DNA from: an uncultured Anaerolinea sp.
GTDB taxonomy: Bacteria; Chloroflexota; Anaerolineae; JAAEKA01
Assembly: GCA_964626845.1 (NCBI GenBank)
Contig: CAZVGR010000014.1
Location: 12,570-76,569, forward strand
Length of the DNA: 64,000 nucleotides
Direction: 5' to 3'
Shown here one piece after another: positions 3,825 through 32,868 of the stretch. How positions within the stretch are numbered: position 1 is the first letter of the stretch; each line of letters opens with the position of its first letter. Position numbers and translations under genes: made by a program. Under the pieces are notes generated by a model. It was not told where the DNA came from and did not search any database. It worked only from the letters and a program-made list of their open reading frames with translations.

Positions 3825-4763
3825 ATGTCCAGTGAAGCCGGATCACCTACTATTGCAGAGCGACTCGAAGCAAGGTTTGCGCAAGCTGACAGCGCCAGCC
3901 GCGGGTGGCTGGGCGTGCTGCGCCGCACAATTGATCGCTTCACCGCAACGCGCGGCCCGCAGGCGGCTGCGGCTCTGTCCTACTACAGCTTGTTCTCTTT
4001 GTTTCCCCTTGCCGTCTTACTGATCACTGCGCTGGGCTTTTTGATTGATCCAGAGGCTGCCCGGCAGTTGACCGGTGTCGTGATACAGCGCATTCTGCCC
4101 GATGCTGAGGGTATCGAGGAGTTTGTGTTCGACGTCCTGGACAGCATCTTCGCCTCTCGCGGCCAGGTGACGCTGATCAGCCTGGTAGCGTTGCTTTGGG
4201 CTGCATCTGGCGTTTTCACCAACCTGACCTTCAACATCGACCTGGCTTGGTCTGAGAATGGCCGGCCGAATCTGTTCACAGCGCGCTTGATAGGCCTGTT
4301 GATGGTGGTGGTGGTCTATGTGGGATTGATCGTTCTCCTGCTGTCGTCAGCCACGCTGGGTATGCTGTCCATGCTGCCAGTGGCTTTGATGCGCTGGTTG
4401 GGCTTCAGCGGCCAGATCGCGCAGGTGTGGAGCGTGCGCTCGATTCCTCTTATCATCTCGGTGATTGTTTTCTTTGGGCTGTATAAGTGGGTGCCCCGCG
4501 TGCAGGTGCCTTGGCGCATTGCCCTGGGCGGCGCGCTGTTTGCTGCCCTGGCGACTCAGGTGCTGAATCTGGGCTTCACCTGGTATCTGAGCAGCGGTCT
4601 GGCGCGTTATGAGCGTCTTTATGGCCCGCTTACCACCATCATCGTCTTGCTATTCTGGTTCTACCTGACGGTCCTGATTATCTTGATCGGCGCACATTTT
4701 TGTGCAGCGATGACGCATCGGCGCAAAATCCGAGCTGAGGCGCGCGTGCTGCCCACGACGTAA
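3825..4763 (+). CDS. YihY/BrkB family membrane protein
   Basis: 312 aa, multi-TM. N-terminal LSYYSLFSLFPL motif typical of YihY/virulence factor BrkB. Confidence 0.8.
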   Translation: MSSEAGSPTIAERLEARFAQADSASRGWLGVLRRTIDRFTATRGPQAAAALSYYSLFSLFPLAVLLITALGFLIDPEAARQLTGVVIQRILPDAEGIEEFVFDVLDSIFASRGQVTLISLVALLWAASGVFTNLTFNIDLAWSENGRPNLFTARLIGLLMVVVVYVGLIVLLLSSATLGMLSMLPVALMRWLGFSGQIAQVWSVRSIPLIISVIVFFGLYKWVPRVQVPWRIALGGALFAALATQVLNLGFTWYLSSGLARYERLYGPLTTIIVLLFWFYLTVLIILIGAHFCAAMTHRRKIRAEARVLPTT

Positions 4764-5951: not shown

Positions 5952-7091
5952 CTAGGCACGCCTGCGCGCGCGGCGCCCCTCTGTCTTGCGCTCGCCGCCG
6001 CCGATCTGATAACGGCCAAGCAGCTCGTACCAATCGGTCAGAGGCTGGTCTGGCGGGCCGGGTTGCCAGGCGCGAGCCGCCTCAACCAGGGCATCCAGAC
6101 TGGCGGCGGGCGTGTCCGGCGAGACGCCGCCGCCCACCGAGAGGATCATGCCGCCGCCGGGCGCGCCGCGATCCAGGCAGGCTGTGGCGAACTCGGCCAC
6201 CACCGCGGGCGGCTGGCGCACGGCCACGTGCAGCGGCGGCACGTTGCCCATCAACGCCACCCGATGCCCCATAGCCGCCTTGGCCTGCGCGATATCTACT
6301 TCGTGGGTCCAGTTGAAGACGTCGAAGCCGGCCTCGGCTAGCGCGGGGTAGAGATGCGGGCAGGGCATGTCATTGTGGTAAACCCGCACCAGCCCGTCGA
6401 AGTGGGCAAAAATGCGCTGCAGGCGGGGGGCCACGAACTCCTGGTAATGCTCCAGCGACACCATGCCCACGATGTCGTCCAGCAGCAGGATGCCCTCAGG
6501 GTTGCGCAACAGCTCTAGCTGGGCGTCGAGCCAATCGATCAACGTGGCAGTAATCTTGTCCAGGCAGCGGTGGATCACGTCGGGCTGCTCCACCAGCCCC
6601 ATCATCAAGCTGGTCAGGCCCATGATCCAGCCGGCCGTGACCATCGGCCCGCGCGCGGCCACCATGTGCATGCCCAGCCCCTCGGCCTGCAAACGCGCCT
6701 CGCTGCGTTCGGTCAGGCGCAGCGCCAGCGGCATCAGCCCATCCTCACGCACGTTGGGCAGCGGCGCGGCCGCCCAATGGGCCGCATCTTCGACCACCGG
6801 TTCGATAGAAGGGGGGCGATCGTGGTGCCAGTGCATTCGGCAGCCAAAGGCCGATGGCTCGGTGGCCATGCCGTACTCCACCCAGAAGCCGGGGATCCAG
6901 GCCACATCCGGCCAGCGCTCCAGCAGGCTGCGGTGGATGCCGAACCAGCGCTCAAAGTCCAAAAAATAGTCCAGCGTGTGGACGCCCGCATAGCCTGGCA
7001 GCCACGGGCTGTCGACAATGAAGGCCACCGGCGGCTGGTCGGTCTCTTCCAGCCGCGCCGCCTGCTTGAACCGCTGCCATGCTGTGGTCAT
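5952..7091 (-). CDS. Uroporphyrinogen decarboxylase (URO-D) family protein, paralog 1
   Basis: The ORF extends to 7238, but that part only translates the tandem repeat. Real start is MTTAWQ at 7091 with an AAGGA SD. URO-D-like C-terminal motifs. Confidence 0.7.
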   Translation of the reverse strand: MTTAWQRFKQAARLEETDQPPVAFIVDSPWLPGYAGVHTLDYFLDFERWFGIHRSLLERWPDVAWIPGFWVEYGMATEPSAFGCRMHWHHDRPPSIEPVVEDAAHWAAAPLPNVREDGLMPLALRLTERSEARLQAEGLGMHMVAARGPMVTAGWIMGLTSLMMGLVEQPDVIHRCLDKITATLIDWLDAQLELLRNPEGILLLDDIVGMVSLEHYQEFVAPRLQRIFAHFDGLVRVYHNDMPCPHLYPALAEAGFDVFNWTHEVDIAQAKAAMGHRVALMGNVPPLHVAVRQPPAVVAEFATACLDRGAPGGGMILSVGGGVSPDTPAASLDALVEAARAWQPGPPDQPLTDWYELLGRYQIGGGERKTEGRRARRRA

Positions 7092-7110
7092 GAGGAGTCC
7101 TTTCGGGGAG

Positions 7111-7216
7111 GGGGAGTTGCAAGTTGCAGGTGGCAAGTTGCAGGTGGCAAGTTGCAGGTGGCAAGTTGCAGGTTGCAGGTGGCAAGTTGCAAGTTGCAGG
7201 TGGCAAGTTGCAGGTA
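7111..7216. repeat. Tandem ~14-bp (two heptamer) repeat (GCAAGTTGCAGGTG)n
   Basis: About 7.5 direct units visible in sequence. Confidence 0.9.
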
Positions 7217-7242
7217 GATGCATAAACAGCACAGACAAACGC

Positions 7243-7382
7243 CCTTGTCTACTTGCCTACTTGCCTACTTGCCTACTTGCCTACTTGTCTACTTGTCTAC
7301 TTGCCTACTTGCCTACTTGTCTACTTGCCTACTTGCCTACTTGCCTACTTGCCTACTTGCCTACTTGCCTACTTGCCTACTG
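7243..7382. repeat. Tandem octamer repeat (CTACTTGC/CTACTTGT) x17; reverse complement of the GGCAAGTAG family
   Basis: Direct inspection. Partially complementary to the 7111-7216 array. Confidence 0.9.
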
Positions 7383-7417
7383 ATCTGCCCTCCCAGTGTA
7401 CGCTATGACAATGGCGA

Positions 7418-7446
7418 TTGACAAATCATCTATCGTCCATTATAAT
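7418..7446 (+). promoter_or_regulatory. Consensus sigma-70 promoter TTGACA-17bp-TATAAT upstream of the LacI-family gene
   Basis: 'ttgaca' 7418-7423 and 'tataat' 7441-7446 with exact 17-bp spacing. Confidence 0.55.
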
Positions 7447-7450
7447 CTTT

Positions 7451-7467
7451 GTTAGCGTTAACGAAAC
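7451..7467 (+). promoter_or_regulatory. Candidate operator (palindromic core CGTTAACG) overlapping the predicted transcription start
   Basis: 'gttagcgttaacgaaac' sits immediately downstream of the -10. CG-centred palindrome typical of LacI-family sites. Confidence 0.3.
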
Positions 7468-8643: not shown

Positions 8644-10689
8644 ATGTTTCGCTCGCTGCTTGTCCTGCTTCTGTTAGCCTCGCTGTTGGTAGCTGCCTGT
8701 GGCTCCCCGGCCCCGGCCCAACCCGCTCCGACCGAACCTGCCCCCGCCCAGCCTGCCCCGGCTGAGCCTGCCCCCGCTCAACCTGCTCCGGCTGAGCCCG
8801 AGCCTACTCAACCAGCGCCCGCCGAGCCGGTGTCTGCGCCATCCAAATACAACGAAGCGCCCATGTTGGCGGCGCTGGTGGCCAGCGGCGACCTGCCGCC
8901 GGTGGACGAGCGCTTGCCCGAAGAGCCGCTGGTGCATCCAGTCGCCGAGATCGGCAAATACGGCGGCACGCTGCGCCGCGGCTTCACCGGGCCCGGCGAC
9001 CACAACAACTACACGCGCCTGTCCTACGACGCGCTGGTGCGCTTCTCGCCCGACGGCGCCGAGGTCATCCCCCATATCGCCAAGGGGTGGGAGTCCAACG
9101 AAGACTTCTCAGTGTGGCGGGTTTTCCTGCGCGAGGGCATGAAGTGGTCGGACGGCGCGCCCTTCACGGCTGACGACATCCTGTTCTGGTACGAGCACAT
9201 CCTGCTCAACACCGACTTGATGCCCAGCGTGCCTGGCTGGATGATGAACAGCGACGGCACAGTGGCCAGGGTCGAGAAGTTGGATGATTACACCGTCCAA
9301 TGGACTTACGCCCAACCCAACACGGCCTTCCTGCTGGACCTGGCTAACAAAGACGGCGCCGACAGGTCGATCACCAACCTGGCCTTCGTGCCGGCCCATT
9401 ACCTCCAGGACTTCCATCCTGCGTTCACCGAACAGGCTGCGCTGGATGCCGTGGTCAAGGAGCGAGGCTTCGACACCTGGACCGAGCTGTTTGCCGTGGA
9501 GGCCATGCCGCACCTGAGCGGCAAGCGGCCCAGCACGGCAGCTTGGGTGCCGGACAACTCGACGGTGGCCGACCCGGTCTTCCGGCTCAAGCGCAATCCC
9601 TATTACTTCGCCGTGGACCAGGCTGGCAACCAGTTGCCCTACCTGGACGATGTGCGCTACACCTTCTTCGCGGACGTTGCAGCCCTGAACCTGGCTGCAG
9701 TGGGCGGCGAGATCGACATGCAGGGCCGCCACATCCAGATGAGCAACTACCCGGTGCTGGTGGAAAACGCCGAGAAGGGCGGCTACAACGTATTGACCTG
9801 GCCTACGTTCGGCGGTTCGGATGCGGTGCTGATGTTCAACCAGACCTTCAACGCCGACCCTGGCATCGCCGCGCTGTTGCAGAGCAAGGACTTCCGCATC
9901 GCCATGTCGCACTCCATTGACCGCGAGTCGATCAAGGAGCTGGCCTTCCTGGGCATCGGCGAGGCGCGCCAGGGTGTGCCCGCGCCCAACCACCCCTACT
10001 ACCCCGGCGATGAGTACGCCTTCAAGTACACCGAGTACGACACCGCTAAGGCCAACGAAATCCTGGATGGGCTGGGCTTGACCGGCCGCGACGGTGAGGG
10101 TTTCCGCACCCTGCCCGACGGCGGCCGGCTGGATATCGAGATCCAGGTCATCCCCGCCTTTGCCAACTGGCCCGACATTGGCCAGATCATCGTGCAAAAC
10201 TGGGCCGACGTGGGCGTGCGCGCCCACATCGAGACCCGCGAGCGCGCCTTGGGCTTCCAGATGCGCAACACCAACGACCTGATGGTGGAGATCTGGAACG
10301 AGGACACCACCGCCTTCCCCTTCAGCGGCCAGCCTAAGATGGACCCGCGCAGCGATCCGGCCCTAACCCTGGCGCCGCTGGTGCGCCAGTGGTACCTGAG
10401 CGGCGGCGCTGAGGGTGTCGAGCCGACGCCAGAGCTGGCCCGGCTGGTGGAGATCATCGACGAGGCCAAGCTGTCCGGCCGCGAGCGCCAGATCGAGCTG
10501 GCCCAGGAGTTGTTCCGTCTCTGGGCTGACAACATCTGGGAGATCGGCACCGTCGGCCTGACCCCCATGGTGCAGGGTGTGGTCGTGGTCAACCAGGACC
10601 TGCGCAACGTGCCTGAGACGGCCGGCAACGACTGGCCGCTGCGCACGCCCGGCAACACCCGGCCGGAGACGTTCTTCTTCGACCGGTAG
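8644..10689 (+). CDS. ABC transporter substrate-binding lipoprotein, family 5 (Opp/Dpp-like)
   Basis: Start ATG 8644 after AGGAGG. Lipoprotein signal (LLVAAC). PAPAQPAPAEP tandem linker, then SBP_bac_5 domain. Confidence 0.85.
   Translation: MFRSLLVLLLLASLLVAACGSPAPAQPAPTEPAPAQPAPAEPAPAQPAPAEPEPTQPAPAEPVSAPSKYNEAPMLAALVASGDLPPVDERLPEEPLVHPVAEIGKYGGTLRRGFTGPGDHNNYTRLSYDALVRFSPDGAEVIPHIAKGWESNEDFSVWRVFLREGMKWSDGAPFTADDILFWYEHILLNTDLMPSVPGWMMNSDGTVARVEKLDDYTVQWTYAQPNTAFLLDLANKDGADRSITNLAFVPAHYLQDFHPAFTEQAALDAVVKERGFDTWTELFAVEAMPHLSGKRPSTAAWVPDNSTVADPVFRLKRNPYYFAVDQAGNQLPYLDDVRYTFFADVAALNLAAVGGEIDMQGRHIQMSNYPVLVENAEKGGYNVLTWPTFGGSDAVLMFNQTFNADPGIAALLQSKDFRIAMSHSIDRESIKELAFLGIGEARQGVPAPNHPYYPGDEYAFKYTEYDTAKANEILDGLGLTGRDGEGFRTLPDGGRLDIEIQVIPAFANWPDIGQIIVQNWADVGVRAHIETRERALGFQMRNTNDLMVEIWNEDTTAFPFSGQPKMDPRSDPALTLAPLVRQWYLSGGAEGVEPTPELARLVEIIDEAKLSGRERQIELAQELFRLWADNIWEIGTVGLTPMVQGVVVVNQDLRNVPETAGNDWPLRTPGNTRPETFFFDR
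8701..8830 (+). repeat. In-frame tandem DNA repeat encoding the Pro/Ala-rich linker (PAPAQPAPAEP)n of the binding protein
   Basis: ~33-bp period visible in sequence. Confidence 0.7.
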
Positions 10690-12034: not shown

Positions 12035-13309
12035 ATGACTGAACACCCAGAGCCTCAGTCCTCCTTCGGCCGCAGGCTAGTCGACAATCTGCAAGAGGCA
12101 TCCTCGGTCTCCTACCAGCCCATGGTGCGGCAAGACGAGGAAGCCGCGCTGGCGCCGATGGGCGCAACGACCCAGGGCGCCGAGGCATTCTACGTAGCGC
12201 CCAACTGGAAACTGGTCTGGTGGCGCTTCAAAAAGCATCGCCTGGCCATGATCAGCGGCGTGGTCATGATCTTTATCACGATCATTGCGCTGGTCCCCGA
12301 CTTCTTCGCCACCCAGGACCCCAACGCCACCGCCGCCCTGGAGTCGTTCATCCCGGTACAGCGGGTGCATTTCTTCGATGAGCGCCGGCTCAGCCCCTTT
12401 GTCTTCGGCGCAGTCGGTCAGCGCAACCCCAAGTCGCTGCGGGTCGAATGGACGATCGACGAAGAGGTCAAGATACCGGTACAATTCTTCACGCGCGGCT
12501 ATCCCTACAAGATATTGGGCGTGATCTCCACCGACATCCATTTGATTGGCGTCGCGCCCACCGAAGAGCAGGCAGCAATCCGCCAGGCCGCGGCCAGCGG
12601 CGAGCGCATCAGCCAGGGCATCCATCTGCTGGGCACCGACCGCCTGGGACGCGACCAGTGGTCGCGGCTGATGTTCGGCACGCGCGTCTCGCTGTCCATC
12701 GGCCTGTTTGCGGTGGCTGTCAGCACGGTGCTGGGCATCTTTCTGGGCGGCATCTCCGGCTATTTCGGCGGCACGATCGATATGATCGTACAGCGCACCA
12801 TCGAGATCCTGCAGTCGCTGCCGGCCATTCCGATCTGGCTGGCCCTGACGGCCGCGCTGCCCCGCACCTGGTCAGTGGAGCAGACCTACTTCGCTATCAC
12901 TATCATCCTGGCGCTGCTGGGCTGGACGACGCTGGCGCGCGAGATTCGCGGGCGCTTTCTGACGCTACGCGAGGAAGACTTCATCGTGGCAGCCAAACTG
13001 TCGGGCTGCAGCCAGCAGCGCGTCATCTTCCGCCACATGGCGCCCACCATGTCCAGCCACATCATCGCCGCCGTCACCCTGGCCATCCCGGTTATGATCA
13101 TCAACGAGACCTTTCTCAGCTTCCTGGGCCTGGGCCTGCGGCCGCCGGCCATCAGTTGGGGCGTGCTGCTGCAAGAGGCGCAGAACCTGCAATCTATCGC
13201 CCTGGCTCCGTGGCTCTTGTTGCCCGGCCTGGTGGTCATCATCACCGTGCTGGCCCTCAACATCTTGGGCGATGGCCTGCGCGACGCGGCCGACCCGTAT
13301 ACGAGCTGA
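12035..13309 (+). CDS. ABC transporter permease (DppC/OppC-like) with N-terminal extension
   Basis: 424 aa. OppC_N-like extension then permease domain. Confidence 0.85.
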   Translation: MTEHPEPQSSFGRRLVDNLQEASSVSYQPMVRQDEEAALAPMGATTQGAEAFYVAPNWKLVWWRFKKHRLAMISGVVMIFITIIALVPDFFATQDPNATAALESFIPVQRVHFFDERRLSPFVFGAVGQRNPKSLRVEWTIDEEVKIPVQFFTRGYPYKILGVISTDIHLIGVAPTEEQAAIRQAAASGERISQGIHLLGTDRLGRDQWSRLMFGTRVSLSIGLFAVAVSTVLGIFLGGISGYFGGTIDMIVQRTIEILQSLPAIPIWLALTAALPRTWSVEQTYFAITIILALLGWTTLAREIRGRFLTLREEDFIVAAKLSGCSQQRVIFRHMAPTMSSHIIAAVTLAIPVMIINETFLSFLGLGLRPPAISWGVLLQEAQNLQSIALAPWLLLPGLVVIITVLALNILGDGLRDAADPYTS

Positions 13310-13377
13310 TGATTGGGTGACTGGGTGATTGACTGCCACCCTTGCCACCTGCCACCTGCATCCTGCAACCTGCAACC
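13310..13377. repeat. Heptamer tandem repeats (TGGGTGA, then TGCCACC/TGCAACC)
   Basis: Direct inspection. Occupies the junction between the permease and ATPase genes. Confidence 0.8.
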
Positions 13378-14412
13378 ATGAACCAACCTTTGCTTTCGGT
13401 GCGCAACCTAAAGACCTACTTCTTCCTGGACGAAGGCATCGTCAAGGCCGTAGATGGCCTGAGTTTCGACGTCTACCCCGGCCAGGTGGTGGGCATCGTC
13501 GGCGAGAGCGGCTGCGGCAAGAGCGTGGCCATCAAGTCGGTACTGCGCATCGTGCCGCCACCCGGCCGCACGGCCCAAGGGCAGATCCTCTACCGGCCAC
13601 AGAAGCAGGCCAGCTATGAAGGCGTCGGGCCTGAAGGCGCCATCGACCTGGTGCAGTTGAACGAGCGCGGCAAGCAGATGCGGGCGCTGCGCGGGGCCGA
13701 GATCGCCCTCATCCCGCAGGAGCCGATGGCCTCCTTCAGCCCGGTACACACCATCGGCAACCAGCTCATCGAGGCCATCCGCCTGCACCAGCCGGTCGGC
13801 AAGAAGGAGGCCTGGCAGATCGCCGTGGAACGCATGCGCGAGGTGGGGGTGCCCAGCCCCGAACAGCGCATGAACGCCTACTCCTGGGAGCTGAGCGGCG
13901 GGCTGCGCCAGCGGGCCATGATCGCCATGGCGCTGTCGTGCAACCCCAGCCTGCTGATCGCCGACGAGCCGACCACAGCCATCGACGTGACCACCCAGGC
14001 CCAGGTGCTGACCTTGCTCAAAGGCCTACAGGCCGAGCGCCAGATGGCTATCATCTTCATCACCCACGACCTGGGCGTGATCGCGCAAATGGCCGATTGG
14101 GTGGTAGTGATGTACCTGGGGCGGGTGATGGAGCAGGGGCCGGCCGACGACATCTTCCACAGCCCGCAGCATCCCTACACCCGGGCGCTGCTGGAGTCGA
14201 TTCCCACCGTCCATTCAGCCGCGCGCACCTTCCTGCCCACCATTGCGGGCTCGATCCCGCATCCCTTCAACCGGCCGCCTGGCTGCCCTTACTACCCGCG
14301 CTGCGCCGAGTTCATGCCCGGCGTCTGCGACCAGCGCACCCCGGCCGCGCAGCCCATCGGCGAACGCCAATTGGTGAGCTGCTTCCTGCACCACGATGTG
14401 GCGGATGAGTGA
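13378..14412 (+). CDS. ABC transporter ATP-binding protein (DppD/OppD-like)
   Basis: Walker A GESGCGKS, signature LSGGLRQR, Walker B LLIADEPTTAIDV. Start ATG 13378 (MNQPLL). Confidence 0.85.
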   Translation: MNQPLLSVRNLKTYFFLDEGIVKAVDGLSFDVYPGQVVGIVGESGCGKSVAIKSVLRIVPPPGRTAQGQILYRPQKQASYEGVGPEGAIDLVQLNERGKQMRALRGAEIALIPQEPMASFSPVHTIGNQLIEAIRLHQPVGKKEAWQIAVERMREVGVPSPEQRMNAYSWELSGGLRQRAMIAMALSCNPSLLIADEPTTAIDVTTQAQVLTLLKGLQAERQMAIIFITHDLGVIAQMADWVVVMYLGRVMEQGPADDIFHSPQHPYTRALLESIPTVHSAARTFLPTIAGSIPHPFNRPPGCPYYPRCAEFMPGVCDQRTPAAQPIGERQLVSCFLHHDVADE

Positions 14413-16830: not shown

Positions 16831-17259
16831 ATGAACTACGTCTTTCCCACCACCAACCCACGCCGCTACCGCTTCCCCACCCACGCCAACGACCTGGTGA
16901 TGGACCGCGCCGAGGCGGCCACCAGCGAGGTCTTCATCGTCGAGATGGCGCCGGGCGAGGCGCCGCCGCGCCACCACCACGACGACATGGAGCAGATCTT
17001 CTACGTGCTGGCCGGCCAGGGCCGGCTGGAGATCGGCGACCCCACCGAGAGCGCGACGATCCATCCCGGCGACGTGGTGCGTATCCCCGTCTCCACCTGG
17101 CACACCGTCCACTGCCTGGGCGACGAGCCCTTACGCTACCTGGCCGTGGACTGCTTCATCGCTGGCCGTCCCGCCGCCGAGCCCACCTGGGACGACCACG
17201 TGCGCGTGGTGTGCCAGGAGCAAGGCTGGGACTACGATACCATCAGAAATGGTCAATGA
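16831..17259 (+). CDS. Cupin domain protein
   Basis: 142 aa. Cupin motifs (PPRHHHDDMEQIFYVLAG ... PVSTWHTV). Confidence 0.7.
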   Translation: MNYVFPTTNPRRYRFPTHANDLVMDRAEAATSEVFIVEMAPGEAPPRHHHDDMEQIFYVLAGQGRLEIGDPTESATIHPGDVVRIPVSTWHTVHCLGDEPLRYLAVDCFIAGRPAAEPTWDDHVRVVCQEQGWDYDTIRNGQ

Positions 17260-17345
17260 TCAATGGTCACTTGCCAATTGTCAATACTCAGAGCTTGCCA
17301 GCCATTGACAATTGACCATTGGACATTGAGATTTGGACATTAATC

Positions 17346-18530
17346 ATGCGCATCACCCCCCGCTTCCCCGACCTCCTCGCGATTTACCGCGCCGAGCTGC
17401 TGGAGCGCGTCGTGCCCTTCTGGCTGCGCCACGCCATCGACCGCCAGCACGGCGGCCTGTTGACCTGCATCGCCGACGACGGGGCCGTGCTGAGCACCGA
17501 CAAGTATCTCTGGTCGCAACTGCGCGCCGTCTGGACCTTCTCCGCGCTCTACAACCGCATCGAGCCGCGGCCGGAGTGGCTGGACGTCGCCCGCCACGTC
17601 TACGACTTTGCCAGCCGCTATGGCCGCGACGACGAGGGGCGCTGGGCCTTCGCCGTGGATCAGGACGGCCGCGTGCTGCAAGGCGCGGACAGCATTTTTG
17701 CCGACGGCTTTGCCATCTACGGCCTGACCGAGCTGGCCCGCGCCACCGGCGACCAGGCTGTCATCGACCTGGCGCTGGCGACCTACGCCAACGTGCAGCG
17801 GCGGCTGGCTGCGCCTGGATCCTACGGCATCGGCCCCTTCACCCTGCCTCCTGACGCCAAGGCCCACGCCGTCTCCATGATCTTTGCCCTGGTCTTCGAC
17901 GAGCTGGGCCAGTTGCTGGGCGACCAGGCCATCATCGCGGCCGGCCGCGCCCATGCCGATGAGGTGATGGACGCCTTCCTACGGCCCGACCGGCGCGTGC
18001 TCTACGAGTATGTCCACCTGGATAACACACTGATCGACACCCCGCAGGGCCGCGCAATCGTGCCCGGCCACGCCATCGAGTCCATGTGGTTCATGATTGA
18101 GATCTACCAGCGGGCCGGCCAGCCTGAGCGCGTCTGCCAGGCCGTGGAGGCGATCCGCTGGCACCTGGAGCTGGGCTGGGACGACGAGTACGGCGGCATC
18201 GTCCACGCCCGCGACGCGGCCGGCGGGCAGCCCTGGTGGCGCTTCGCCGACGCCAAGCTGTGGTGGCCGCAGACCGAGGCGCTGACCGCCCTGCTACTGG
18301 CCTGGGAGCACAGCCGCGAGCCGTGGTGCCTGGACTGGTTCGCCCGCGTCCACGACTATGCTTTCCACCACTACCCGGTGCCGCAGCATGGCGAATGGAC
18401 CCAGCGCCTGGACCGCCAGGGCCGCCCCTTCAACGCGACCGTGGCCCTGCCCGTCAAGGACCCGTTCCACCTGCCGCGCGCGCTGATCTACTGTGTTGGC
18501 GCGTTGCAGCGGCTGGCGGGGCAGGCGTAA
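17346..18530 (+). CDS. N-acylglucosamine 2-epimerase (AGE) family protein
   Basis: Start ATG 17346 (MRITPRF). (alpha/alpha)6-barrel AGE-family motifs. Confidence 0.8.
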   Translation: MRITPRFPDLLAIYRAELLERVVPFWLRHAIDRQHGGLLTCIADDGAVLSTDKYLWSQLRAVWTFSALYNRIEPRPEWLDVARHVYDFASRYGRDDEGRWAFAVDQDGRVLQGADSIFADGFAIYGLTELARATGDQAVIDLALATYANVQRRLAAPGSYGIGPFTLPPDAKAHAVSMIFALVFDELGQLLGDQAIIAAGRAHADEVMDAFLRPDRRVLYEYVHLDNTLIDTPQGRAIVPGHAIESMWFMIEIYQRAGQPERVCQAVEAIRWHLELGWDDEYGGIVHARDAAGGQPWWRFADAKLWWPQTEALTALLLAWEHSREPWCLDWFARVHDYAFHHYPVPQHGEWTQRLDRQGRPFNATVALPVKDPFHLPRALIYCVGALQRLAGQA

Positions 18531-18640
18531 TGCGTAATGCGTAACCCGTAACCCGGAAAGGCTCGCCGACGAGATCTCTGGTTACGGATTACGAGTTACG
18601 TGTTACGAGTTACGAGTTACGAGTTACGTGTTACAAGCAA
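18529..18640. repeat. Inverted heptamer arrays (TAATGCG/TAACCCG ... GTTACGA/GTTACGT) flanking hairpin core CGTAACCCGG...GGTTACG
   Basis: Direct inspection. Confidence 0.85.
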
Positions 18641-21310: not shown

Positions 21311-22087
21311 ATGTCATCCCCCATCCACCAAATCACCATCGACCAACTTCCCGTGCGCGTCTATGCCAGCAACGAGGCCATGGGCCAGGCTGCGGCAGTG
21401 GAGGCTGCGGCGGTAATCCAGCGGGCCATCGCCCAGCGCGGCGCAGCCAACGTCATCCTGGCCACGGGCAACTCGCAGCTCACCTTCTTGCGCAGCCTAC
21501 GCGAAAACCAGGATATCGAATGGCGGCATGTGCGCGTTTTCCACATGGACGAGTACGTGGGCCTCGACCCGCAGCACCCTGCCAGCTTTCCGCTCTTCCT
21601 GCGCCGCCATTTCCTGGACTACGTGGACGTGGGCGCGTTCTTCCCCGTGGCCGCGCCGGTCGAGGACACCGAGGCCGCCTGCCGGGCCTACGAGTCGTTG
21701 TTGCGCCATCACCCGGCCGACCTGTGCGCCTGCGGCATCGGCGAGAACGGCCACCTGGCCTTCAACGATCCGCCCTACGCCGACTTCGACGATCCCGTTT
21801 GGGTCAAGGTGGTGCAGTTGGACGAGCGATCGCGGCGCCAGCAGGTAGGCGAGGCCCATTTTACCACCCTGGACGAGGTACCCACCCACGCCGTCACCCT
21901 GACCATCCCCGCGCTGCTGGCCGCCGGGACCGTGCTGTGTATCGTCCCAGAAGCCCGCAAAGCCGAGGCCGTCCAGGCCAGCCTGCGCGGCCCGATTACC
22001 GAGGACTGCCCCGCGTCGATCCTGCGCACGCAGGCCCACGTCCGGCTGTATCTGGATCCGGAGTCGGGTAAATTGGTAAATTGGTAG
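21311..22087 (+). CDS. nagB: Glucosamine-6-phosphate deaminase (NagB/6-phosphogluconolactonase family)
   Basis: Start ATG 21311 (MSSPIHQ). Motifs ILATGNSQ and FHMDEYVGL. Confidence 0.8.
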   Translation: MSSPIHQITIDQLPVRVYASNEAMGQAAAVEAAAVIQRAIAQRGAANVILATGNSQLTFLRSLRENQDIEWRHVRVFHMDEYVGLDPQHPASFPLFLRRHFLDYVDVGAFFPVAAPVEDTEAACRAYESLLRHHPADLCACGIGENGHLAFNDPPYADFDDPVWVKVVQLDERSRRQQVGEAHFTTLDEVPTHAVTLTIPALLAAGTVLCIVPEARKAEAVQASLRGPITEDCPASILRTQAHVRLYLDPESGKLVNW

Positions 22088-22178
22088 ATTGGTAGATTGG
22101 TCATGACTCGCCGCGCGACAACATCACCAATCTACCAATCTACCAATCACCAATCTACCAATCTACCATTCACCAACC
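22075..22178. repeat. Inverted arrays of (TTGGTAAA / TTGGTAGA) and complementary (CAATCTAC / CAATCAC) hepta/octamer repeats
   Basis: Direct inspection. Forms a long imperfect palindrome between nagB and the downstream URO-D gene. Confidence 0.85.
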
Positions 22179-23327
22179 ATGAACCCACGAATCCGCCTCC
22201 TCACCGCCCTTTCCCACCGCGAGCCGGACCGCGTGCCCTTCGACCTGGGCAGCACGCAGGTGACCGGCATCCACGAGGTCGCCTACCGCGCCCTGCGCGC
22301 CGCGCTGGGGCTGCCGGCCGTGGAGCCGGTGCTTTGCGACGCGATCCAGCGCCTGGCCCTGCCTGACGAGGACCTGCTGCAAGCGCTGGGCGTGGACACG
22401 CGCGGCCTCTACCCGCTCAACAGCCACAACCTGCCCTTCGACGAAGCGGACGGCGGCGACTACTGGCTGTATCAAGACGAGTGGGGCATCACGCACCGTC
22501 GGCCCAAGGACGAGGGCCTCTACTACAGCATCTGGCAGGTCCCGCTGCCCCGCGACAACGTGAGCGTGCAGGAGATCGAGCGCTATCCCTGGCCCGACAT
22601 GGGCGCGGTCTGGCGCTTTGCCGGGCTGCGGGAGCAGGCTGAGCGCTGCCGCGCGGCCGGCTATGCCGTGGTGCTCAAGGATGGCTTTGCTGGCATCTTC
22701 GAGTTCGCCCAGCGTATGGTGGGCATGGAGAACCTGCTGGTGATGATGGCGCTACGGCCGGAGGCGGCCGAGGCGCTGTTCGACCAACTGCTGGCGCTGA
22801 AACTGGCCTACTGGCAGACCGCGCTGGCTGAGCTTGGCGACCTGGTGGACGTTGTTACCTACGCCGACGACTACGGCAGCCAGGTGTCGCAGATCATCTC
22901 GCCGCGCATGTTCCGCCGCCTGCTCAAGCCGCGCGTGCAGCAGGTCTTGGCGTTGCAAGCCAGGCTGGCGCCGCACGCTTACCGCTTTTTCCACTCCGAC
23001 GGCAACGTGCGGTCGCTCCTCCCCGACTTCATCGAGATCGGCGTGCAGATCCTCAACCCGATCCACATCCGCGCCACCGGCATGGATCCGGCCGCGCTGA
23101 AGCGTGACTTCGGCCGCGACCTGGCCTTCTGGGGCGGAGGCGTGGACACCCAGGGCGTGCTGCCCACCGGCACGCCGCAGCAGGTCAAGGAAGACGTGCA
23201 GCGCAACGTCGCGGCTTTGGCATCCGGCGGCGGCTACGTCTTCAACACCATCCACAACATCCAGGCCGACGTGCCGGCGGAGAATGTGTTGGCGATGGTG
23301 GAGGCATTGCGAGAGGTATCCCCATGA
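22179..23327 (+). CDS. Uroporphyrinogen decarboxylase (URO-D) family protein, paralog 2
   Basis: 382 aa. URO-D family N- and C-terminal motifs (DRVPFDLGS; FHSDGN; FNTIHNIQADVPAENV). Confidence 0.75.
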   Translation: MNPRIRLLTALSHREPDRVPFDLGSTQVTGIHEVAYRALRAALGLPAVEPVLCDAIQRLALPDEDLLQALGVDTRGLYPLNSHNLPFDEADGGDYWLYQDEWGITHRRPKDEGLYYSIWQVPLPRDNVSVQEIERYPWPDMGAVWRFAGLREQAERCRAAGYAVVLKDGFAGIFEFAQRMVGMENLLVMMALRPEAAEALFDQLLALKLAYWQTALAELGDLVDVVTYADDYGSQVSQIISPRMFRRLLKPRVQQVLALQARLAPHAYRFFHSDGNVRSLLPDFIEIGVQILNPIHIRATGMDPAALKRDFGRDLAFWGGGVDTQGVLPTGTPQQVKEDVQRNVAALASGGGYVFNTIHNIQADVPAENVLAMVEALREVSP

Positions 23328-24325
23328 AAGTTCTCTTTATCGGCGGCACCGGCGTGATCAGCTCGGCCTGCACAGAGTTGGCCGTGCAGCAGCACATCGA
23401 CCTGTATCTGCTCAACCGCGGGCAGAGCACGGCGCGGCCGGCGCCCATCGGCGCAACGGTGCTGCACGGCGACATCCGCGACCCGGCCAGCGTCGAAGCC
23501 GCTCTGCGCGGCCACAGCTTCGACGTGGTGGTGGACTGGATCGCCTTCACGCCCCAGCATGTGCAGACTGACATCGACCTGTTCCGGGGCCGCGTGGGCC
23601 AGGTCATCTTCATCAGCTCGGCCTCGGCCTATCAGACCCCGCCGGCCAGCCTGCCCGTCACCGAGTCGACGCTGCTGGACAACCCTTTCTGGGAGTACTC
23701 GCGCCAGAAGATCGCCTGCGAGGAGCTGCTGGTGCGGGCTTACCGCGACGAAAAGTTTCCCATGACCATCGTGCGCCCCTCGCACACCTACGACGCCACC
23801 AAGATACCGCTGTTGGGCGGCTACACCAGCCTCAAGCGCATGAAAGAGGGCCGGCCGGTGCTGGTCTACGGCGACGGCACATCCTTGTGGACGCTGACCC
23901 ATACGCGCGACTTCGCCACCGGCTTCGTCCCGCTGCTGGGCAACGCCCGCGCCATCGGCGAGGCGGTGCATATCACCTCCGACGAATGGCTGACCTGGAA
24001 CCAGATCTACCAGACCATGGCCGCGGCGCTGGGCGTGGAGGCCAGGCTGGTCCACGTGCCCAGCGAGCTGATCAACGCTTACGACCCGCACCACGGCGAG
24101 GGCCTGCTGGGCGACAAAAGCCACAGCATGATTTTCGACAACAGCAAGATCAAGCGTCTGGCCCCCGGCTTTGCCTGCACCACCCCCTTCGCCTGGGGCG
24201 CCCGCGAGATCGTCGCCTGGCACGAGGCCGACCCGGCCCGGCAGGGGATCGACCCGTACGTGGAGACGTTGATCGAGCGGGTGCTGGCGGCGTATGAGAA
24301 GTGCTGGCCGGGCAGTAATGCGTAA
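23324..24325 (+). CDS. NAD-dependent epimerase/dehydratase (SDR family)
   Basis: ATGA overlap with the upstream stop. Rossmann motif LFIGGTGVISS. Confidence 0.8.
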   Translation: MKVLFIGGTGVISSACTELAVQQHIDLYLLNRGQSTARPAPIGATVLHGDIRDPASVEAALRGHSFDVVVDWIAFTPQHVQTDIDLFRGRVGQVIFISSASAYQTPPASLPVTESTLLDNPFWEYSRQKIACEELLVRAYRDEKFPMTIVRPSHTYDATKIPLLGGYTSLKRMKEGRPVLVYGDGTSLWTLTHTRDFATGFVPLLGNARAIGEAVHITSDEWLTWNQIYQTMAAALGVEARLVHVPSELINAYDPHHGEGLLGDKSHSMIFDNSKIKRLAPGFACTTPFAWGAREIVAWHEADPARQGIDPYVETLIERVLAAYEKCWPGSNA

Positions 24326-24412
24326 CTCGTAACTCGTAACCCGGAATTCGGAGACTCGTGCAGGCCGACTCCGGGTTACGCATTACGAGTTACGGGTTAC
24401 GGGCGCATCCAA
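24307..24412. repeat. Heptamer arrays (TAACTCG/TAACCCG ... TTACGAG/TTACGGG) around hairpin CGTAACCCGGAA...TCCGGGTTACG
   Basis: Same family as 18529-18640 and 63195-63268. Confidence 0.85.
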
Positions 24413-24417
24413 CTCCC

Positions 24418-25476
24418 ATGAACCACCCATTTCTCCCGTTCGAGCTCGTCTTCAACCCCAACTGGTGGTTCCAGACGGCCGGCATCAGCTTCGATGAAAG
24501 TTTCTACCTGGACCCTGCGACGCGCATCCGCAACGACGTGACTATGCGTCGCGTGCTGTGGCAGCGCTACGGCGACCTGGGGCTGGGCGAGGCCGACCCG
24601 CAGCCGCGGCCGGTGATCGGCTCGCTGCACGTGGCCGGCGGCTTCGTCATCCCGGCCCTGCTGGGCGCCGAGATTCGCTTTGCGCCCGACGCCGCGCCCC
24701 AGCCGCTGCCGCGCCGGCTGACGGCTGAACAGATCGACGCGCTGGAGAAGCCTGACTTGCGCTCGCTGTGGCCGATGAACGCGCTGCTGGCCCAGATGGA
24801 CACGCTGGAGGCCGAGTACGGCTATGTGGTCGGCGACCTGAACACCGACGGCCTGCTCAACGCAGCCTACCACTTCTACGGCGAGGACTTGTTCGCCGAC
24901 TTCCACCTGGCCCCGCAGCGGGTGACGCGCCTGTTGTCGCTGATCGGCGAGTTGATCGTGGACGTGGCGCTGGCCGTGCGCAGCCGCACCGGTTCCTGTT
25001 CGATCAGCGTCAACCGCATGGTGGAGCGGGTGGACCCGGCCATTTTCTTCCACGCCAACTGCTCGGTGCAGATGATCTCGCCCAAGAGCTATCGCGCGCT
25101 GCACCTGCCCGTGGAGCAGGCCATGGCCCGCCGCATCCGGCCCTTCGGCATCCACCACTGCGGCAGCAATCTGCATAAAGTTGCAGCCGCCTACGCCGAG
25201 TTGCAGCCGGCGATGGTCGACGTGGGGTGGGGCTCGGACGTGGCCGCGGTGGCGGCGACGCTGCCCGCCACGTTTCTCAACCTGCGCCTCAGTCCGGTGC
25301 GCATGTTGCACAACACGCCGCAGGAGGTCGCTGCCGACGCCGAATATCTGTTGCAGGCCGCCGGCGACCTGACGCGCGCTGGCCTGTGCTGCATCAACAT
25401 GGACTACGGCACGCCCGACGACAACATCTGGGCCGTGGCCGAGGTCGTGGAGCGCTATCGACGCTACGGCGGTTGA
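24418..25476 (+). CDS. URO-D-like family protein (divergent), paralog 3
   Basis: Start ATG 24418 (MNHPFLPF). Weak URO-D-like C-terminal motifs (IHHCGSN; GTPDDNIWAV). Assignment tentative. Confidence 0.5.
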   Translation: MNHPFLPFELVFNPNWWFQTAGISFDESFYLDPATRIRNDVTMRRVLWQRYGDLGLGEADPQPRPVIGSLHVAGGFVIPALLGAEIRFAPDAAPQPLPRRLTAEQIDALEKPDLRSLWPMNALLAQMDTLEAEYGYVVGDLNTDGLLNAAYHFYGEDLFADFHLAPQRVTRLLSLIGELIVDVALAVRSRTGSCSISVNRMVERVDPAIFFHANCSVQMISPKSYRALHLPVEQAMARRIRPFGIHHCGSNLHKVAAAYAELQPAMVDVGWGSDVAAVAATLPATFLNLRLSPVRMLHNTPQEVAADAEYLLQAAGDLTRAGLCCINMDYGTPDDNIWAVAEVVERYRRYGG

Positions 25477-27022: not shown

Positions 27023-27039
27023 AGCTTTCCCTCACCCCA

Positions 27040-27125
27040 GCCCTCTCCCAGAGGGAGAGGGAGTCCGGAATCCGGAATCCGGAGTCCGGTCCCCTCTCCC
27101 TCTGGGAGAGGGTTAGGGTGAGGGC
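27040..27125. terminator. Long near-perfect palindrome (~33-bp arms) with a (TCCGGAA)n heptamer loop; candidate terminator after uxaC
   Basis: ccctcaccccagccctctcccagagggagaggg ... ccctctccctctgggagagggttagggtgaggg. Confidence 0.5.
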
Positions 27126-29279: not shown

Positions 29280-30659
29280 ATGGCCGCTGACACGCTGTTG
29301 ATCCACAACGGCGCCGTCTGCACCTTTGGCGATGCCAACCAGGTGATCGACGACGGCGCGGTGCTGGTCGAGAATGGGCAGATTGCTGCCGTTGGCAGGG
29401 GCGACGAGCTGAAGCGCGCCTATCCGGACGCGCGGCGCGAGGACGCGGGCGGCAAAGTGCTGATGCCCGGCAACATCTGCTCGCACACCCACTTCTACGG
29501 CGCGTTCGCGCGCGGCCTGTACATCCCCGGCCCGGCGCCCAAGGATTTCCCCGAGATCCTGCGCCGGCTGTGGTGGACGCTGGACATGGCGCTGGACGAC
29601 GACGGCGTGCTGTACAGCGCGTTAGTCTGCCTGGTGGACGCGATCCGCAACGGCACGACCACCCTGTTCGACCACCATGCCAGCCCCAACGAGATCGACG
29701 GCAGCCTGGACATCATCGCCGGCGCGGTGGAGGCGGCCGGGCTGCGGGCGGTGTTGTGCTACGAGGTAACCGACCGCAACGGGCCAGAGGGCACGGCGGC
29801 CGGGATTGCTGAGAACGTGCGCTTTATCAAGGGGCAGCGGGCTCGATCAGGAGACCGGCCCGAGCAGGTGATGCTGTCAGGGCTGTTTGGGCTGCACGCA
29901 TCGCTGAGCCTGAGCGACGAGACCCTGGCGCAGTGCGTGGCCGAGGCCGAAGCGTTGGGCGATGTCGGCTTTCATGTCCACGCGGCCGAGGGGCCGGCCG
30001 ATCAGGAGGACAGCCTGGCCAGATACGGTCTGCGCACCATCGACCGCCTGCGCGCCCGGGGCGTGCTCAACCCGCGCAGCATCGTGGCCCACGTGACGGC
30101 CATTGACGGCTGGGAGATGGCCGCGCTGCGCAAGAGCGGCGCCTGGGTGACGCATCAGCCGAGGAGCAACATGAACAACGCGGTGGGGGTGGCCGACGTG
30201 CCGGCCATGCTGCGCGGCGGCATGCCGGTGCTGCTGGGCAACGATGGCTTCTCCAACGACATGTTCACGGAGATGAAGACCGCCTACTTATTACACAAGG
30301 CCTGGCGCAACGACCCGCGCGCCATGCCCGGCAACCAGGTGATCGACATGGCCTACCGCCACAACGCCCGCCTGGCGGCGCAACACTTCCCGCTGCCGCT
30401 GGGCGAGATCAGCGTGGGCGCGGCGGCCGACCTGATCCTGCTGGACTACTACCCCACCACCCCCATGACGGCCGACAACCTGCCCTGGCACATCCTCTTC
30501 GGCGTCAGCGGCAGCCACGTGACGCATACCATGGTCGCCGGCAAATGGCTGATGAAAGAGCGCGCGCTGTTGACCCTGGACGAGGCTGCGATCACCGCGC
30601 AGAGCCGCACAGTGGCCAAGGCAACCTGGGAGCGATTCTGGGAGTTGAGTGGGAAGTAG
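29280..30659 (+). CDS. Amidohydrolase family protein (chlorohydrolase/SsnA/aminodeaminase-like)
   Basis: Start ATG 29280 after GGAGG. Metal-binding HTH and later His motifs. Confidence 0.7.
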   Translation: MAADTLLIHNGAVCTFGDANQVIDDGAVLVENGQIAAVGRGDELKRAYPDARREDAGGKVLMPGNICSHTHFYGAFARGLYIPGPAPKDFPEILRRLWWTLDMALDDDGVLYSALVCLVDAIRNGTTTLFDHHASPNEIDGSLDIIAGAVEAAGLRAVLCYEVTDRNGPEGTAAGIAENVRFIKGQRARSGDRPEQVMLSGLFGLHASLSLSDETLAQCVAEAEALGDVGFHVHAAEGPADQEDSLARYGLRTIDRLRARGVLNPRSIVAHVTAIDGWEMAALRKSGAWVTHQPRSNMNNAVGVADVPAMLRGGMPVLLGNDGFSNDMFTEMKTAYLLHKAWRNDPRAMPGNQVIDMAYRHNARLAAQHFPLPLGEISVGAAADLILLDYYPTTPMTADNLPWHILFGVSGSHVTHTMVAGKWLMKERALLTLDEAAITAQSRTVAKATWERFWELSGK

Positions 30660-30720
30660 GGAAGTAGGCAAGTGGCAAGTGGCAAGTAGGCAAGTGGCAA
30701 GTAGGCAAGTGGCGAGTGGT
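30650..30720. repeat. Tandem GGCAAGT(A/G) hepta/octamer repeat x9
   Basis: Same unit family as the reverse-complement array at 7243-7382. Confidence 0.85.
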
Positions 30721-32823: not shown

Positions 32824-32868
32824 TGGGTGAATTGGTGAATGGTGAATTGTTAACAAGGAGTGTGTGGC

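Follow-up and report, generated by a model that had tools for sequence, protein, structure and literature searches.

Opposed 7- and 8-nucleotide tandem arrays with a predicted long hairpin in the inferred 5′ leader of a URO-D-family gene of an uncultured Chloroflexota bacterium

Organization of the locus

The element described here lies in a stretch of 64,000 nucleotides from an uncultured Anaerolinea sp. (Chloroflexota; GenBank assembly GCA_964626845.1, contig CAZVGR010000014.1, positions 12,570 to 76,569), hereafter the window. It consists of two short tandem-repeat arrays, A and B, which face each other in the gap between a URO-D-family gene and a divergently transcribed LacI-family regulator gene (Table 1). 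The location of the arrays between these two genes had been proposed in a preliminary description of the window, made from the letters alone, and is borne out by the Pfam assignments of both proteins.

The two genes feature promoters that are arranged back to back, with −35 boxes overlapping on opposite strands at 7418–7424. The lacI promoter is a perfect TTGACA-17-TATAAT (7418–7446) and starts right after array B, where the preliminary description had placed it. The URO-D promoter is a weaker match to the consensus, TTGTCA-18-TACACT, with a predicted transcription start at ~7388; within the spacer or the arrays no URO-D promoter was found, either by consensus scan or by eye. In the window, the interval between the URO-D −10 box and the ATG measures ~300 nt and is made up of array B, a 27-nt centre, and array A.

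Conservation of the promoters was judged from an alignment between the two start codons of seven orthologous loci (the window, L010, L028, L012, L013, L026, and L014; 76–92% protein identity). The block GATTTGTCAA is invariant in 7/7 loci. The URO-D −10 box reads TACACT in six of them and TAAACT in L028, i.e., five of six positions are invariant, and the ATTATA block containing the lacI −10 box is invariant in all seven. Since the promoters are conserved and the arrays are on the URO-D side, the arrays lie outside the promoter region proper. The earlier assignment of the arrays to a divergent promoter region thus stands only in part: they are located between divergent genes, but downstream of the URO-D −10 box (7395–7400), whose promoter core is conserved in the seven loci. 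As judged by this conservation, both arrays would belong to the 5′ leader of the URO-D-family gene rather than to the stretch between the promoters.

An operator-like site, TGTTAGCGTTAACGA, directly follows the lacI −10 box. Its core CGCTAAC has 5/7 columns invariant across the orthologues, GTTAACGCTAAC-like surroundings are conserved as well, and L012 (~9881–9905), L013, and L026 have two copies of the site (GTTAACGCTACCGTTAGCGCTAAC). By analogy with the LacI family, TGTTAGCGTTAACGA would act as a LacI operator, and its position, its conserved core, and the duplication in three relatives suggest autoregulation of lacI.

Table 1. Features of the URO-D–lacI gap and related arrays elsewhere in the window
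Feature	Position	Strand	Evidence and remarks
URO-D-family gene, 379 aa	5952–7091	−	Pfam PF01208, E = 2.7e-38; identical protein on public contigs; inferred leader bears the arrays
Shine-Dalgarno-like AAAGGA	7098–7103	−	6 nt upstream of the URO-D ATG (7091); just 3′ of the hairpin, unsequestered
Non-repeat flank GGGGAGGGGGAG	7105–7116	+ (sequence)	pairs with CCCTCCC at 7388–7394, closing the hairpin in the DNA and + strand folds
Array A, (GCAAGTT GCAGGTG)n, ~7 copies	7115–7216	+	URO-D sense (−): (CACCUGC AACUUGC)n; promoter-distal hairpin arm
Hairpin centre	7217–7243		sequence, folds, alignment with L010 and L028
Array B, (CTTGCCTA)17	7244–7382	− (repeat written on +)	URO-D sense: (UAGGCAAG)n with UAGACAAG variants; promoter-proximal hairpin arm
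CCCTCCC (+) / GGGAGGG (−)	7388–7394		partner of the 7105–7116 flank; in the URO-D promoter discriminator region
Inferred URO-D promoter, −35 TTGTCA (7424–7419), 18-nt spacer, −10 TACACT (7400–7395)	7395–7424	−	consensus scan 9/12
lacI promoter TTGACA-17-TATAAT	7418–7446	+	consensus match 12/12; starts just after array B
LacI-type operator-like site TGTTAGCGTTAACGA	7450–7464		directly after the lacI −10 box
LacI-family regulator gene, 333 aa	7500–8501	+	Pfam PF00356, PF00532, PF13377; identical protein on public contigs
A-type array, reversed, (GGTGGCA/GGTTGCA)n on − strand	13343–13377	−	TRF and GGTGGCAAGTTGCA probe; ends at the ATG of the ABC ATPase gene
Opposed pair	17248/17302		z = −3.1
Opposed pair	18525/18581		z = −3.0
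Opposed pair	22067/22126		z = −11.3
Opposed pair	24321/24372		z = −7.0
Unpaired array (GGCAAGT[A])n, mixed 7- and 8-mers GGCAAGT and GGCAAGTA	30648–30719	+	TRF, probe matches
Opposed pair	61771/61806		z = −3.3
TRF, Tandem Repeats Finder; ABC, ATP-binding cassette; aa, amino acids; z, folding z score.

Anatomy of the arrays

Read by eye over 7100–7400, array A spans 7115–7216 and array B 7244–7382. Tandem Repeats Finder (TRF) places array A at 7119–7215 with a period of 14, 6.9 copies, and 90% matches; its unit GCAAGTTGCAGGTG is composed of two related 7-mers, GCAAGTT and GCAGGTG. Array B is found at 7244–7381 with a period of 8, 17.2 copies, 96% matches, and a score of 248, and its unit CTTGCCTA is a rotation of CTACTTGC. 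The focal units are also given as TAGGCAAG and CACCTGCAACTTGC. The cores GCAAGT of array A and ACTTGC of array B are reverse complements of each other, and the arrays are 27 nt apart. The two opposed arrays of the preliminary description are hence real, with coordinates correct to within a few bases. The two-unit probe GGCAAGTRGGCAAGT (up to two mismatches) yields 20 matches against 0.28 expected, 16 of them inside array B, and none of 100 shuffles gave as many; for the probe GGTGGCAAGTTGCA under the same threshold, 12 matches against 0.76 expected were obtained, again a count matched by no shuffle.

The centre carries a mini-palindrome, AGACAA (7233–7238)-acgccc-TTGTCT (7245–7250), the right half of which extends into the first array B unit. 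Read in the URO-D sense, the centre is ACAAGGGCG; L028 has at that position ACAAGGAGGCG, its Shine-Dalgarno sequence. The bases between the centre and array A resemble what may be decayed reverse-complement units. Outside the arrays, the flank at 7105–7116 and its partner at 7388–7394 extend the pairing; the latter, positioned between the −10 box and the predicted start, is probably not part of the mRNA.

Predicted fold of the region

The region 7100–7395 folds as a single interrupted and imperfect hairpin of ~125 bp. Within it, 14 nt of array A pair with 16 nt of array B, forming 6-bp helices that are split by small internal loops. Because of the different 7-nt and 8-nt registers, an ungapped inverted-repeat finder returns arms of just 12 nt. 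The predicted folding energies are −160.4 kcal/mol for the + strand RNA (z = −10.8), −133.2 kcal/mol for the − strand RNA, which is the URO-D sense strand (z = −7.0), and −78.3 kcal/mol for the DNA (z = −9.2); none of the three was reached by any shuffle. The long imperfect hairpin that had been anticipated from the letters is therefore supported by all three folds. Folding of the predicted leader from 7388 to 7062 gives −127 kcal/mol (z = −4.0) with the hairpin extending from nt 8 to nt 283, approximately, and with the Shine-Dalgarno-like AAAGGA and the AUG remaining outside.

The preliminary description had also pointed to a cruciform. As a DNA structural element of the divergent promoter region, such a cruciform could control one or both genes, e.g., by supercoiling-dependent extrusion or by promoter spacing. 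The single-stranded DNA fold agrees with this, as does the pairing of the non-transcribed flanks GGGAGGG/CCCTCCC—relevant only at the DNA level—and folding shows no strand bias over 29 array-bearing co-directional gaps. However, the promoters are intact and back to back with the arrays outside them on the URO-D side, the arms are broken every 6–7 bp around a centre of ~28 nt, and the orthologues keep this promoter architecture without the arrays. Interrupted arms and a large centre generally disfavour cruciform extrusion from inverted repeats. Control of the promoters by a cruciform is, hence, very improbable.

Orthologous loci and origin of the arrays

The sequence between TACACT and the URO-D ATG diverges among the orthologues, measuring ~45–150 nt in the relatives without comparable arrays. 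Compared with them, the leader in the window carries an insertion of ~270 nt that consists of the arrays. The nearest genomes were assembled from metagenomes and belong to Chloroflexota of the Anaerolineae/Caldilineales; the top match, at 92% amino acid identity, is “Anaerolineae bacterium clx_CAG2.” In L028 (91% amino acid identity), the homologous place reads …CAAATGAG(TAGACAAG)x3 GAGGCG…ATG, i.e., the octamer of array B running into the Shine-Dalgarno sequence, and the opposed arm is missing. L010 (92% amino acid identity) features no array at all, and array A is absent from both. Thus, the octamer occurs in 17 copies in the window, three in L028, and none in L010. Relatives as close as 91–92% protein identity possess three octamers at most and lack the opposed arm, so that the short tandem repeats in the inferred 5′ leader of this URO-D-family gene have probably expanded recently and in a lineage-specific manner.

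The following sequence of events would account for the present arrangement. The ancestral leader may have resembled that of L028: a promoter, (TAGACAAG)x3, a Shine-Dalgarno sequence, and the ATG. Replication slippage would have raised the octamer to 17 copies, and an inverted duplication of the leader arm—by fold-back or template switch, and centred on the old Shine-Dalgarno sequence—would have produced the opposed arm. Both arms would then have slipped and homogenized independently, array B as an 8-mer, while array A shifted towards 7-mers that were amplified anew as a 14-mer. An inverted duplication is suggested because of the central mini-palindrome, the correspondence of the centre to the Shine-Dalgarno sequence of L028, the apparently decayed units, and the pairing GGGAGGG/CCCTCCC flanks (sense strand). 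The anatomy and leader location described above and an origin from slippage are together considered likely; the explanation as a whole, including its presumed effect on the mRNA, is somewhat more likely than not.

The octamer array in L028 also bears on a different account, according to which the element is a mobile element or a known class: a repetitive extragenic palindrome or bacterial interspersed mosaic element (REP/BIME), a miniature inverted-repeat transposable element (MITE), a clustered regularly interspaced short palindromic repeat (CRISPR) array, an intrinsic terminator, or a known structured RNA. In favour of such an account, the element forms a hairpin, lies between genes, and is dispersed, related units being present at three further sites in the window. 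But there is no consensus common to the loci, the units differ between them, and the octamer is already in situ in L028, meaning that it grew in place and was not inserted. This account is hardly credible. The lack of a shared element consensus and the pre-existing octamer set the element apart from REP/BIME and MITE; a CRISPR array, a class that needs repeats of 23–55 nt, is rejected for 7- to 8-nt contiguous head-to-tail units without unique spacers; and an intrinsic terminator is rejected as neither strand has a T-run after the stem and a terminator scan finds none in 7100–7400. A scan of the whole window against Rfam 15 gave no match at or above the gathering score. A reading of array A as a sigma-54 promoter (TGGCA…TTGCA) was likewise discarded, the GG-to-GC offset being 8 nt and not 12.

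Occurrence of the arrays in natural populations

Public short-read contigs (Logan) reach into the arrays from both sides. URO-D contigs with an identical protein from nine different SRR136170xx runs all stop 53 nt upstream of the ATG, inside array A, and six contigs with an identical LacI protein all start 148 nt upstream of the ATG, inside array B. The sequence at the array edge equals that of the window in both sets. Because independent short-read contigs break inside both arrays, the arrays exist in natural populations and are not an artefact of one record—a possibility that had been raised beforehand. These contigs end within the arrays and so support their presence rather than their exact copy numbers. 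Metagenome contigs of many runs (L001–L009 and L040–L045, each at position 1) end at one and the same base inside the arrays. A scan of metagenomes of the Joint Genome Institute revealed no contig of the same species, with a best match of 91%.

Copy-number variation invites comparison with classical simple-sequence-repeat loci of pathogens, in which slippage acts as a phase-variable contingency switch; here, frequent changes in array length would turn URO-D expression on and off within a population. A long and homogeneous array such as array B (17 copies, 96%) favours slippage, the copy number varies between relatives, and a precedent exists in the leader repeat of hmw (see below). Against this, the arrays change neither promoter spacing nor reading frame, and the gene encodes a catabolic enzyme in a sugar-utilization cluster and not a surface antigen. 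A switch of this kind is considered improbable.

A lineage-wide class of intergenic arrays

The arrays were placed in context by a census of arrays with at least three copies in 415 kb of Caldilineales DNA, comprising the window and 30 related loci, i.e., a sample of loci and not whole genomes. Period 7 dominates with 54 arrays, followed by periods 8 and 6 (12 each), 9 (six), 4 (five), 5 (three), and 10 (two). An inverted two-unit partner within 160 nt is present for 41 of the 84 arrays of periods 6–9, compared with four and five for reversed and complement control probes; the figure of 41/84 is an underestimate, as the two-unit partner test scores even array B as unpaired because the registers differ. 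Intergenic regions bear arrays in 44 of 297 cases (39/236 co-directional, 4/29 divergent, and 1/32 convergent gaps), and only 18 lie well inside coding sequence (338 kb). The units vary by locus, and the arms within a pair remain complementary. The longest member by a wide margin is array B; the runner-up has 9.7 copies. From this census, the focal element appears to be the largest member of a class of intergenic repeats that recurs across the lineage, with predominantly 7-nt units that are specific to each locus and with about half of the arrays in inverted pairs.

The window itself contains many other arrays of 7–8 nt, nearly all at gene junctions of the + strand operon, and several form opposed pairs with strong hairpins (Table 1). 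The second occurrence of the GGCAAGT(A/G) unit near 30650, noted in the preliminary description, was recovered by TRF and by probe matches. This array overlaps the end of the upstream gene and reaches the start region of the next one; it forms no hairpin (−7.9 kcal/mol, z = +0.8). The arrays are thus neither invariant (17, 3, or 0 copies in relatives) nor confined to one gap, similar ones being common in other intergenic regions, and the preliminary description's proviso to that effect falls away.

At the junction between the permease and ATPase genes, arrays are found in five species (window 13305–13380; L010 4040–4260; L012 4150–4330; L013 4080–4290; L026 4130–4330), with different units: TGCCACC/TGCAACC in the window and L010, and opposed TCAGTAA…TTACTGA in L012, L013, and L026. 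The position of the array is conserved there, and its sequence has turned over.

Further observations concern the surroundings. The sugar-catabolic cluster downstream is co-directional and encodes an Opp-type ABC transporter, a sulfatase, NagA, NagB, an N-acetylglucosamine 2-epimerase, UxaC, UxaE, and two more URO-D paralogues; the LacI-controlled cluster, hence, has three URO-D-family (PF01208) members at 5952–7091 (−), 22179–23327 (+), and 24358–25476 (+). The + strand operon arrays (13307–13377, 17248–17341, 18525–18634, 22067–22176, 24321–24403, 30648–30719, and 32815–32849) begin at or before the upstream stop codon. Their units contain TAA or TGA, so that any frame is stopped within three units, and they often end right at the next ATG without a Shine-Dalgarno sequence, as in TGCAACC-ATG and CACCAACC-ATG. 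Between UxaC and UxaE, an 89-nt hairpin (27030–27118; −77.7 kcal/mol, z ~ −15) consists of two CCCTCTCCCAGAGGGAGAGGG palindromes flanking a self-complementary (TCCGGAA)n. L020, from a more distant Chloroflexota metagenome-assembled genome (MAG), carries a near-perfect hairpin before its URO-D homologue (729–830), the arms of which are 9-mer arrays (GCGGATTGG.../...CCAATCCGC), and a related 9-mer array after it (1959–1982). Repeats of another kind occur within two large repetitive proteins: a 483-nt unit in 5.8 copies with 73% matches (55724–58502) in an open reading frame of 1921 amino acids (54411–60173, −), and coding repeats of 18–24 nt in one of 1431 amino acids (42087–46379).

Comparison with known systems

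Arrays of this general kind are already known from Xanthomonas, cyanobacteria, and Haemophilus; the present ones differ in host lineage, in the diversity of locus-specific units, in size, and in their position in a leader. Literature searches gave no description of such arrays for Chloroflexi, Caldilinea, or Caldilineales; the only related find for Chloroflexi was a period-14 satellite family of Chloroflexus aurantiacus, which has a different unit, GATAGaAgATAGGA.

In enterobacteria, REP/BIME elements are hairpins dispersed between genes and between cistrons; they lack a U-tract and can form barriers to mRNA decay. They all follow one ~35-nt consensus instead of consisting of tandem units, whereas each locus described here has its own unit and the stems are themselves tandem arrays.

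In Xanthomonas, GGGAATC heptamer arrays are ~90% intergenic, range from 2 to 26 copies, and are not conserved between close species; 70–75 inverted array pairs per genome converge on opposite strands and are able to form stem-loops or cruciforms (Rehm et al. 2015, PMC4692102). The likeness consists in variable intergenic arrays of ~7 nt and in two nearby arrays converging on opposite strands, as found at the present locus. Unlike these arrays, those of Xanthomonas share one G-rich unit genome-wide (GGGAATC/GGGANTN) with G-quadruplex potential, whereas the units here are locus-specific, lack G-tracts, and are not prone to form quadruplexes. Moreover, the Xanthomonas arrays lie nearer to the 3′ end of the upstream open reading frame, while here the whole gap is often filled or, at this locus, the 5′ leader is occupied; and the phylum is another one.

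A second comparison is offered by the cyanobacterial short tandemly repeated repetitive (STRR) sequences and the TAACTGA repeats of Beggiatoaceae and cyanobacteria. These are intergenic heptamer arrays that often end beside start codons (MacGregor 2015, PMC4679880); for the “Maribeggiatoa” genome, only one inverted repeat set is reported (PMC4679880). Shared with them are the intergenic heptamer arrays beside start codons and the filamentous hosts, and near-identical units, TTACTGA/TAACTGA, are present in L012 (~4190–4260), L013 (~4130–4160), and L026 (4243–4274). An array in L016 (16303–16357) has the unit TGACCAA, whose reverse complement, TTGGTCA, is a cyanobacterial STRR unit. Heptamers are, in this sense, shared among filamentous bacteria of different phyla. 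In the broad sense, the focal arrays resemble the STRR class, having head-to-tail units of ~7 nt, a non-coding location with a mode of 7, and copy numbers that vary among relatives. They differ from STRR/TAACTGA repeats, which have few fixed units and are mostly direct, by their own units and opposed orientation. An assignment to cyanobacterial STRR in the strict sense is rejected, since the units differ and the host belongs to the Chloroflexota/Caldilineales and not to heterocystous cyanobacteria.

A functional precedent is the 5′ untranslated region of Haemophilus influenzae hmw1A, in which (ATCTTTC)n is part of a 122-nt hairpin cut by RNase III; expression is modulated there at the post-transcriptional level by the number of repeats (Rapun-Araiz et al. 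2025, PMC12721329). Heptamer-scale repeats with a long RNA hairpin, predicted in the present case, are common to both, and a conserved promoter lies upstream of the present arrays, which may be transcribed as part of a leader. In hmw, one arm is the repeat and the other a G-rich unique region, whereas both arms are arrays here; the present hairpin is about twice as long and more interrupted; and RNase III cleavage and phase variation are demonstrated in hmw, as compared with a predicted fold here.

Possible function of the leader hairpin

If the URO-D promoter TTGTCA-18-TACACT transcribes through both arrays, as its conservation suggests, the mRNA would begin with a leader of ~275 nt forming a long interrupted hairpin, which would start ~8 nt from the 5′ end and end before a free Shine-Dalgarno sequence. 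The effect of this hairpin would most likely be post-transcriptional—through altered 5′-end-dependent decay or as an entry site for a double-strand RNase—and could be tuned by the copy number of the arrays. In single-stranded DNA, formation of this hairpin would favour additional slippage. The likeliest functional outcome would thus be a modest, length-tunable effect on the fate of the mRNA; that this constitutes a selected regulatory role appears doubtful.

Several points weigh against such a role and against parts of the proposed origin. Close orthologues function without the arrays, which are therefore dispensable for regulating the URO-D gene. The URO-D sense strand gives the weaker fold (−133 versus −160 kcal/mol for the antisense strand), with an A–C mismatch in every second helix of the sense RNA, and the interrupted helix may be a poor substrate for RNase III. 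Transcription of the leader and its start site are presumed from promoter conservation, and the inverted-duplication step draws on decayed units that were read by eye. In a G–U asymmetry test on 29 co-directional gaps bearing arrays, the sense strand folds better in 13 and the antisense strand in 15 (Wilcoxon p = 0.98); with folding equal on both strands, selection at the RNA level is not supported for these gaps.

The main rival explanation is, accordingly, a neutral one: the arrays would be a by-product of a lineage-specific mutational bias—heptamer-scale slippage combined with hairpin-templated inverted duplication—in tolerant non-coding DNA, with no selected effect on URO-D or lacI. Arrays that are absent or far shorter in orthologues of 91–92% identity, units that vary by locus and turn over fast, and folding without sense/antisense asymmetry are in line with it. 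So is the state of the element itself: one arm has already drifted (7-mer versus 8-mer register, A-to-G in every second unit), and the Shine-Dalgarno sequence and start codon are unaffected. On the other hand, arrays are rarer in convergent gaps (1/32) than upstream of genes (43/265), and those at the permease-to-ATPase junction are kept in five species despite the change of unit, a pattern that selection for having an array there could explain. A strictly zero effect is also unlikely for a structured leader insertion of ~275 nt. Overall, neutrality is a serious possibility, though short of a probable one.

Implications

By itself, the locus is a conspicuous but ordinary case of repeat expansion, and what makes it valuable is the wider pattern in the Caldilineales that it marks. 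At the practical level, the arrays fragment short-read assemblies of Caldilineales at gene boundaries, which affects the contiguity of MAGs and the calling of start codons, and they constitute natural length-variable markers for strain typing. They also offer a comparative system for telling a selected RNA or DNA element from a mutational signature: one junction with different units in five species, and one leader with an expansion from three to 17 copies and the gain of an opposed arm.

A more far-reaching idea, speculative and on present grounds rather unlikely, is that the Caldilineales, and perhaps other filamentous bacteria with near-identical heptamers (TTACTGA/TAACTGA, TTGGTCA), maintain a distinct class of opposed-array hairpins at operon junctions and in leaders, in which each locus has its own unit and the presence of the array rather than its sequence is conserved among species, the permease-to-ATPase junction being an example. 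If true, the hairpins would have to be generated and homogenized by a dedicated mechanism (arm-to-arm templating) or else serve a function that is independent of sequence. Candidate functions would be intercistronic RNA processing or stability, or a role at the DNA level, and the focal element with its 17 × 7 copies would represent the extreme case.

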